64,000 bases of DNA from Escherichia coli (GTDB lineage Bacteria; Pseudomonadota; Gammaproteobacteria; Enterobacterales; Enterobacteriaceae). The position numbers were made by a program, and so were the translations under genes. Below the pieces are notes generated by a model. That model saw only the letters and a program-made list of their open reading frames with translations. It had not been told where the DNA came from and did no database searches. The stretch lies in NCBI RefSeq assembly GCF_003334815.1, contig NZ_QOWO01000007.1. The stretch is one strand, 5' to 3'. Of the stretch, positions 6,176 to 6,864 are shown piece by piece; within the stretch, counting starts at the first letter, position 1, and every line of letters starts with the position of its first letter.

Positions 6176-6864
6176 ATTTTTACTTTGTTCCCGCGCAGTT
6201 ATCAAAAGCAAAAGGAATAGGTAAAAATATTCTTCTCAAATTACAGTTAGTTATAAGGATTTCCTTAACTGCTTCTCCTCACCATCATGTTATTTTCGCC
6301 ACATCATAATCCTGGGCTTGCTGAAGAATAATTGAAATGATATTAGTAATTCCACTGCCTTTGGTAGAGGAAAGTGCTAAATAATAATCAATTGTTAAAT
6401 TATTGTGCATTTCACTACTGGAACTGTAATCAGAAAAGATAGACATGCTTAGCCAATCTCTATTTGATTGAATTGAAAGATGTTTGTTAAGGCATGGATG
6501 CAAGCTATAGATTCTGATACGGTCAATAAAAGAGAATTGCTTAACAATTTTGCAAAATGTATTGGCGAGTAAGAACCGCATTTGGTACTTTCCGGGCAAC
6601 CGCCAGACGATTCTTTATTGGTAATGAGAATAATTAACAATTAAAGAGCGTCGCGAAAGAATAATGTGTCTCGACAGGGGAGACACAGTACGAATCGACA
6701 TAAGGTGATCGTCTGAATCACCAGAATAAATAAAGTCGGTGATAGTAATACGTAACGATAAAGTAACCTGACAGCAGAAAGTCTCCGAGCCTGTGCAGGG
6801 TCCCAATCCGGGATTACACATGCTGGTTAATACCAGTAATTATAATGAGGGAGTCCAAAAAACA

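Follow-up and report, generated by a model that had tools for sequence, protein, structure and literature searches.

The AT-rich ychE–oppA spacer of Escherichia coli is very probably the native control region of the oppABCDF operon

The AT-rich tract between ychE and oppA of E. coli is very probably the native cis-regulatory region of oppABCDF, comprising a terminator, promoter P1 and a 511-nt leader with promoter P2, an RNase E site and a MicF site, with an AT-richness that is intrinsic and an open reading frame (ORF) on its minus strand that is no gene. We analyzed the tract within a stretch of 64,000 nucleotides, referred to as the window, to whose first letter all positions refer (Table 1). 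From left to right, the region would be made up of the ychE terminator, ~120 bp of unconstrained AT-rich DNA, a sigma-70 promoter P1, and the leader, which would carry P2, the RNase E site, the MicF site, and a structured proximal domain running to the ribosome-binding site. Transcription from P1 and P2 would be set by nucleoid-associated regulators that favour AT-rich DNA, namely Lrp, whose repression is established, and H-NS, which binds in vitro, while Hfq, GcvB, MicF, and polyamines would then act on the leader to adjust translation. Composition, synteny, cross-genus conservation, promoter hexamers, MicF complementarity, proximal covariation, and the lack of a coding signal are results of the present analysis; the positions of the transcription starts, the RNase E site, and the action of Lrp, H-NS, GcvB, and Hfq come from the literature.

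Table 1. Features of the ychE–oppA spacer, in window coordinates
Feature	Position	Strand	Description
ychE intrinsic terminator hairpin	6141-6164	+	Stem AAACGGAGC / GCUCCGUUU, then T-rich run; read from sequence
V1, variable AT-rich region 5' of P1	6170-6287		Identity 0.26-0.44, non-Escherichia genera; sequence unconstrained
Antisense ORF	6285-6599	-	104 codons from TTG; PGAP version 6285-6581, 98 codons from ATG 6581, WP_001211520.1 'hypothetical protein'
oppA promoter P1 block	6288-6353	+	Identity across genera 0.63-0.91; hexamers read from sequence
Conserved island	6288-6347		Identity 0.63-0.91 (MAFFT, non-Escherichia genera)
oppA 5' untranslated leader from P1	6354-6864	+	511 nt of the 737-bp spacer
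Conserved block 2 (P1 +13 to +54)	6366-6407	+	24% GC; identity 0.81-0.84 over >70 species
Conserved island	6368-6407		Identity 0.81-0.84 (MAFFT, non-Escherichia genera)
V2, variable leader segment	6408-6527	+	Identity 0.22-0.50 across genera; length 117-140 nt
Conserved block 3 and promoter P2	6528-6599	+	Identity 0.89-0.93 for 6528-6567
Conserved island	6528-6567		Identity 0.89-0.93 (MAFFT, non-Escherichia genera)
Leader hairpin 1	6665-6672 / 6680-6687	+	Conserved loop GACAGGG; 8/8 pairs with compensatory double changes, 26 genera
Conserved island	6668-6707		Identity 0.63-0.69 (MAFFT, non-Escherichia genera)
Leader domain 2	6694-6740	+	Helix 6694-6699 / 6735-6740 around hairpin 6704-6709 / 6717-6722
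MicF pairing site	6725-6745	+	AATAAATAAAGTCGGTGATAG; best duplex with MicF 5' end
Conserved island	6728-6747		Identity 0.86 (MAFFT, non-Escherichia genera)
Leader helix 5	6767-6774 / 6791-6799	+	96% of cells paired; 4 pairs with double changes
Conserved island	6768-6847		Identity 0.53-0.81 (MAFFT, non-Escherichia genera)
Leader hairpin 6	6822-6827 / 6832-6837	+	GCTGGT / ACCAGT; 98% of cells paired

The window carries adhE (2328-5003, minus strand) and ychE (5480-6127, plus strand), followed by oppA, whose ATG lies at 6865 and whose end lies at 8496, and by oppB from 8582. The ychE–oppA spacer spans 6128-6864 and measures 737 bp, close to the ~740 bp given in the earlier note, and the tract flagged there (6180-6760) falls within it. 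At this locus, K-12-type strains match the window at 99.9-100% identity. A windowed GC calculation bears out the claim that the spacer is AT-rich: GC is 0.356 in 6180-6760, 0.337 in 6200-6600, and 0.373 in the whole spacer, compared with 0.497 for the 64-kb window. With sliding windows of 400, 581, or 737 bp, the core of the spacer is the GC minimum of all 64 kb, the 400-bp minimum of 0.325 at 6161 lying ~3.7 sd under the window mean (0.497, sd 0.046). The adhE–ychE spacer (5004-5479) is likewise AT-rich, with 200-bp windows of 0.345-0.385 among the lowest in the window; it shows RpoD-holoenzyme peaks in published genomic SELEX and, just 5' of ychE, holds the RefSeq call for the 17-codon small protein YchT (b4771, ~5396-5449, plus strand). 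Further low-GC 400-bp windows (0.345-0.378) occur at ~40461, 21671, 20591, 39201, and 15771.

The spacer is held in common across the family. Among complete E. coli genomes, 5424 of 5426 carry it at ≥95% identity. For comparison across genera, we sampled 80 loci from Enterobacteriaceae with OppA as anchor and one genome per species, of which 77 had sufficient upstream flank. In all 77 informative loci, which represent more than 25 enterobacterial genera, ychE lies directly 5' of oppA, and the spacer measures 713-878 bp (median 770) with a GC of 0.34-0.44 (median 0.40) against 0.46-0.55 in the flanking genes. Since the same junction with similar length and GC recurs in every one of these loci, the long AT-rich junction is ancestral to the family.

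This distribution bears directly on the proposal of a horizontally acquired fragment in decay, or the remains of a pseudogene, kept silent by H-NS. The GC minimum of the window, an H-NS site by genomic SELEX, and a longest ORF somewhat longer than in shuffles (P = 0.024) are in keeping with a foreign origin; however, a junction shared by 77 of 77 loci in more than 25 genera predates the radiation of the family, and neither phage nor mobile-element nor distant-protein matches were found, while matches in the plasmid collection represent only the same chromosomal locus. Specifically, blastn against 50,697 phage records gave no match to the spacer, the five spacer ORFs on both strands matched no Pfam, NCBIfam, or PHROG family, and blastn hits in PLSDB were confined to non-mobilizable records of 150 kb-4.9 Mb that carry this locus. 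We regard a foreign or pseudogene origin as extremely unlikely and, for practical purposes, as refuted, given that every enterobacterial genus sampled has the same spacer with conserved islands and no foreign genes. Like H-NS-bound xenogeneic AT-rich islands, the tract has low GC and an H-NS site published from in vitro work; unlike them, it is ancestral, syntenic family-wide, equipped with conserved promoter and RNA blocks, and devoid of mobile or foreign genes.

The database searches also brought up several irregular records. PLSDB contains 20 'plasmid' records with the ychE–oppA locus (12 Escherichia, 6 Klebsiella, 2 Salmonella), all non-mobilizable; among those listed, the E. coli records span 150 kb-4.9 Mb and look like chromosome pieces filed as plasmids. 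Record CACSKA010000003.1, labelled Chryseobacterium sp. 18061, carries a typical enterobacterial ychE–oppA locus and is probably contaminated or mislabelled.

An alignment of all spacers with MAFFT, in which identity to E. coli was scored among non-Escherichia genera, resolves the spacer into six conserved islands separated by variable DNA. The known oppA elements, i.e., P1, P2, the RNase E site, and the MicF site, all coincide with conserved islands. These islands include the most AT-rich parts of the spacer (24% GC in block 2, 33% GC in the P1 block), and the low GC therefore stems from functional elements together with neutral linkers and not from decay. The variable segments V1 and V2 are essentially unalignable between genera, yet their lengths are held within ~25-35 nt. 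V1 measures 106-141 bp in all genera, with a GC of 0.33 in E. coli and a median of 0.34; judged by the published binding data, it is likely a platform for Lrp and H-NS. V2 retains an identity of only 0.49-0.61 to E. albertii, E. whittamii, and strain E69.

At the left end of the spacer, the stem of the ychE terminator is maintained by differing sequences in the aligned spacers of other genera; a consensus promoter/terminator scan did not call it. For oppA, two transcription starts have been reported, P1 (+1) and P2 (+246) (Carrier, Lalaouna and Masse 2023, PMC9988348). We transferred this numbering to the window with the MicF site as anchor: setting +372 to 6725 puts +1 at A6354, from which we infer the exact base (~A6354). 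P1 consists of a -35 element TTGCTG (6318-6323), a 17-bp spacer, and an extended -10 element TGaTATTAG (6338-6346), all conserved, and the +1 position falls 7-8 nt 3' of the extended -10. P2 comprises, likewise conserved, a -35 element TTGGCG (6562-6567) and, at a spacing of 18 bp, a -10 element TACTTT (6586-6591) preceded by TG (6583-6584), with a start at ~6599. A simple promoter scan picked neither P1 nor P2 and listed other 9/12 matches, the count of which is no higher than in shuffles. Just 5' of the P1 -35 element lies a conserved palindrome resembling sites of the CRP/FNR family, TGTTA-N6-CCACA (6288-6303), with TCACA in most genera. This palindrome matches the consensus with 2 mismatches, which is not commoner than in shuffles. 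It was rejected as a CRP site, as its centre at ~-58.5 is not canonical class I and no published CRP link was found.

The DNA of the spacer is a published target of nucleoid-associated proteins. Genomic SELEX assigns to the ychE>oppA spacer an RpoD-holoenzyme site and an H-NS site (PMC3946193, Table 3), the H-NS binding being shown in vitro (PMC3946193), and in minimal medium Lrp, which represses oppA, gives a strong ChIP-seq peak over the promoter of that gene (bioRxiv 10.1101/276808). The regulatory half of the earlier reading as H-NS-bound regulatory DNA thus stands on published binding of H-NS (SELEX, in vitro) and Lrp (ChIP-seq). Further, FNR ChIP-seq has a peak with its centre at U00096.2 position 1,298,775 (PMC3688515), which we place at ~6434, ~431 bp 5' of the oppA ATG, after correcting for IS1/IS5 differences between genome versions; this is ~140 bp 3' of the palindrome at 6288-6303. 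Consensus matches for Lrp, H-NS, FNR, and CRP are 2.5-3.5 times denser than the window average but equal in density to shuffles of the same composition. Three Lrp-like matches fall in block 2, in block 3, and at 6626-6640. In the literature, we found neither in vivo H-NS occupancy nor an hns phenotype for oppA.

Blocks 2 and 3 stand out in this part of the spacer, and the oppA papers found assign no function to either of them. Block 2 holds the CTAA used as IS5 target in MG1655 and a Lrp-like match at 6393-6407 with 3 mismatches to the consensus, while the match in block 3 lies at 6550-6564 on the minus strand. In the minimum free energy (MFE) fold, block 2 pairs with the block 3/P2 region, and across the alignment 72% of cells are paired compared with 34-47% when the partners are slid. 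This long-range RNA helix was rejected, since canonical pairing survives in only 27% of changed cells (23% in shuffles) and most genera have mismatches at two of its positions. An inverted repeat, TTGTTAA (6393-6399) and TTAACAA (6541-6547), ~150 bp apart, is kept in nearly all genera and exhibits no consistent compensatory changes across them; it hence seems more likely to represent paired protein-binding half-sites than an RNA helix. Blocks 2 and 3 are probably better read as DNA-level elements, i.e., the P2 promoter and operator sites. The identity of the proteins that bind them is an inference.

Two further readings of this part of the spacer were weighed. In the first, AT-richness would be kept mainly as a nucleoprotein scaffold, with H-NS and/or Lrp filaments bridging the two AT-rich blocks and silencing P1 and P2, and selection in 6170-6660 would preserve a DNA-level platform rather than an RNA leader. 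The published H-NS SELEX site and Lrp ChIP peak, the Lrp-like matches inside blocks 2 and 3 and at 6626-6640, variable segments whose lengths are held within ~25 nt while their sequence is free, and the block 2–block 3 RNA helix, which lacks covariation support and thereby favours a DNA-level reading, all speak for both of these propositions. In contrast, motif counts do not exceed those of same-composition shuffles, neither in vivo H-NS occupancy nor an hns phenotype for oppA was found in the literature, and block 3 is at least partly explained by promoter P2. We consider the scaffold and the selection for it possible but doubtful, and they would complement the main explanation rather than exclude it. 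In the second, 6366-6600 would form an undescribed regulatory module of two near-invariant AT-rich blocks (6366-6407 and 6528-6567, at 81-93% identity over more than 25 genera) flanking a length-held, sequence-free segment, which we consider unlikely. The blocks of such a module could serve as paired operators of a regulator that bridges or loops the DNA, be it Lrp or a different one, or, alternatively, be the strands of a long-range RNA helix controlling P2 use or leader processing.

The spacer has been hit by independent IS insertions in laboratory and collection strains, while the window carries none. In MG1655 (NC_000913.3), IS5U sits at the CTAA target 6377-6380 inside block 2 (P1 leader +24 to +27); in JM83, IS1A with a 9-bp duplication of 6733-6741 lies inside the MicF site; and in NCTC122, an IS3-family ISSen4 is found near 6511-6517.

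Returning to the preferred reading of the tract as the oppABCDF control region, the long oppA leader named in the earlier note indeed fills 511 of the 737 bp (6354-6864) and most of the flagged tract. In E. coli, an RNase E site at +341, formerly taken as a third promoter, has been described within it, MicF protects +372 to +392, more than 100 nt 5' of the start codon, and no stable OppX-like leader fragment was detected (PMC9988348). The RNase E site maps to ~6694, 171 nt ahead of the oppA ATG. Scanning the leader with the 5' 33 nt of MicF, a query that 5375 E. coli genomes carry between ompC and rcsD, yielded its top duplex at 6724-6746 (-20.2 kcal/mol), and the core of the site, GTCGGTGATAG, is nearly invariant in 26 genera. 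As for GcvB, the literature has this sRNA act near the oppA ribosome-binding site; within the flagged interval itself, the mappable site is the one for MicF (6725-6745).

The full 511-nt leader has an MFE of -134.1 kcal/mol (z = -4.19 vs shuffles). For its last 220 nt, the consensus structure from 26 aligned genera comprises six helices, in which 93.9% of cells are paired compared with 31-54% when the partners are slid, double changes occur in 19 of 33 pairs, and 0 of 500 shuffles reach any of five measures. A secondary structure in the last ~200 nt, predicted from the sequences and backed by covariation, is strongly supported. Hairpin 1 shows double changes in every pair; on the minus strand, a scanner called it terminator-like. 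In domain 2, the inner hairpin 6704-6709 / 6717-6722 has double changes in 5/5 pairs, while the outer helix 6694-6699 / 6735-6740 is invariant and hence uninformative for covariation; in the predicted fold, this outer helix would sequester part of the MicF site. Hairpin 6, one pair of which is UA in 11 sequences and CG in 10, is located just 5' of an AU-rich tract and the Shine-Dalgarno sequence GAGGGAG (6847-6853). An Rfam scan of 5000-7200 at E ≤ 1 matched the leader to no family and returned only a chance plant miRNA model (20.3 bits vs a gathering score of 57), and the RNA assignment accordingly rests on the literature and on our own covariation analysis. A plus-strand upstream ORF (6480-6572) was considered and rejected: it starts in unconserved sequence, and in the alignment the Salmonella changes are non-synonymous, a stop being among them.

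The earlier note described only low-complexity minus-strand ORFs in the tract. The ORF at 6285-6599 does exist, with 104 codons from TTG or 98 from ATG 6581, the latter preceded by only a weak GGAAAG. Its product, however, is not of low complexity, as its entropy of 3.99 bits compares with 3.97 for YchE and 3.89-4.04 for 104-aa windows of OppA; it is only enriched in residues encoded by AT-rich codons (F/L/I/N/K/Y/S make up 60%). Nor are the ORFs confined to the minus strand, since short plus-strand ORFs occur at 6154-6309 and 6480-6572. In dinucleotide shuffles of the spacer, the longest ORF measures 62 ± 17 codons and 2.4% of shuffles reach 104.

Could the minus-strand ORF, in either version (6285-6599 or 6285-6581), be a real young gene, restricted to E. 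coli and antisense to the oppA leader? PGAP calls a hypothetical protein of 98 aa in the majority of the E. coli genomes sampled, all E. coli copies inspected (the window and two others) keep the frame open, the weak GGAAAG lies 5' of ATG 6581, and an ORF of 104 codons is as rare in shuffles as given above. Against this, substitutions are spread flatly over codon positions (18/23/21, 20/27/22, and 24/29/28 vs other Escherichia lineages) with no excess at third positions. In four further Escherichia lineages, namely E. whittamii, E. albertii, E. coli E69, and Escherichia sp. MOD1-EC7003, the frame is interrupted or altered; outside Escherichia the region can no longer be aligned, and conservation tracks the plus-strand promoter and RNA blocks and not the ORF. 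Moreover, protein variants come in many lengths (53 aa in ATCC 25922 vs 98 aa), assemblies with 100% identical DNA differ in carrying the PGAP call, the curated MG1655 record has no gene there, and no Pfam, NCBIfam, or PHROG family matches. An exhaustive phmmer search of 1.84 billion representatives retrieved only the same locus in Escherichia/Shigella and no distant homologue, and a word-indexed protein search likewise found homologues only at the same locus in Escherichia/Shigella. The E. coli-specific ORF product shares 94% identity with a protein filed under Enterobacter hormaechei, whose assembly is probably contaminated or mislabelled. We consider a young gene very unlikely, and the ORF is most likely a spurious by-product of the sequence, with a small residual chance of being such a gene.

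The E. coli oppA promoter region and 5' UTR were reportedly characterised by Igarashi and colleagues in 1997. Compared with the published E. coli oppA control region (Igarashi; PMC9988348), the tract is the same locus and sequence, onto which P1, P2, the RNase E site, and the MicF site map consistently. There is no substantive difference, the conservation map and the covariation for five proximal helices being descriptive additions.

In Salmonella, the 5' UTR of oppABCDF gives rise to the MicF sponge OppX, with forms of 410, 190, and 109 nt (cited in PMC9988348). The E. coli leader is homologous: it lies directly 5' of oppA on the same strand and 3' of a conserved P1, has its MicF complementarity more than 100 nt 5' of the ATG, and shows conserved structure around this site, with GTCGGTGATAG near-invariant and the flanking hairpins conserved in Salmonella and 24 other genera. 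In contrast to Salmonella, however, E. coli has no detected stable fragment, and there MicF reportedly acts as an activator of oppA translation instead of being sponged (PMC9988348). As no stable OppX-like fragment was detected in E. coli (PMC9988348), the sponge function of Salmonella cannot simply be assumed there.

The P1/P2 promoter region and its sRNA-targeted 511-nt leader are the already known control region of a textbook operon, and the tract, having been described before, holds little discovery value in itself. The gene annotated on the strand opposite the oppA leader in many E. coli genomes, WP_001211520.1 with its variants, is very probably a false annotation. Where, as here, a tract serves as an ancestral promoter and leader, low GC by itself is poor evidence of foreign origin. 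Finally, the cross-genus map marks the constrained parts of the 511-nt leader and could steer mutational work on oppA regulation.
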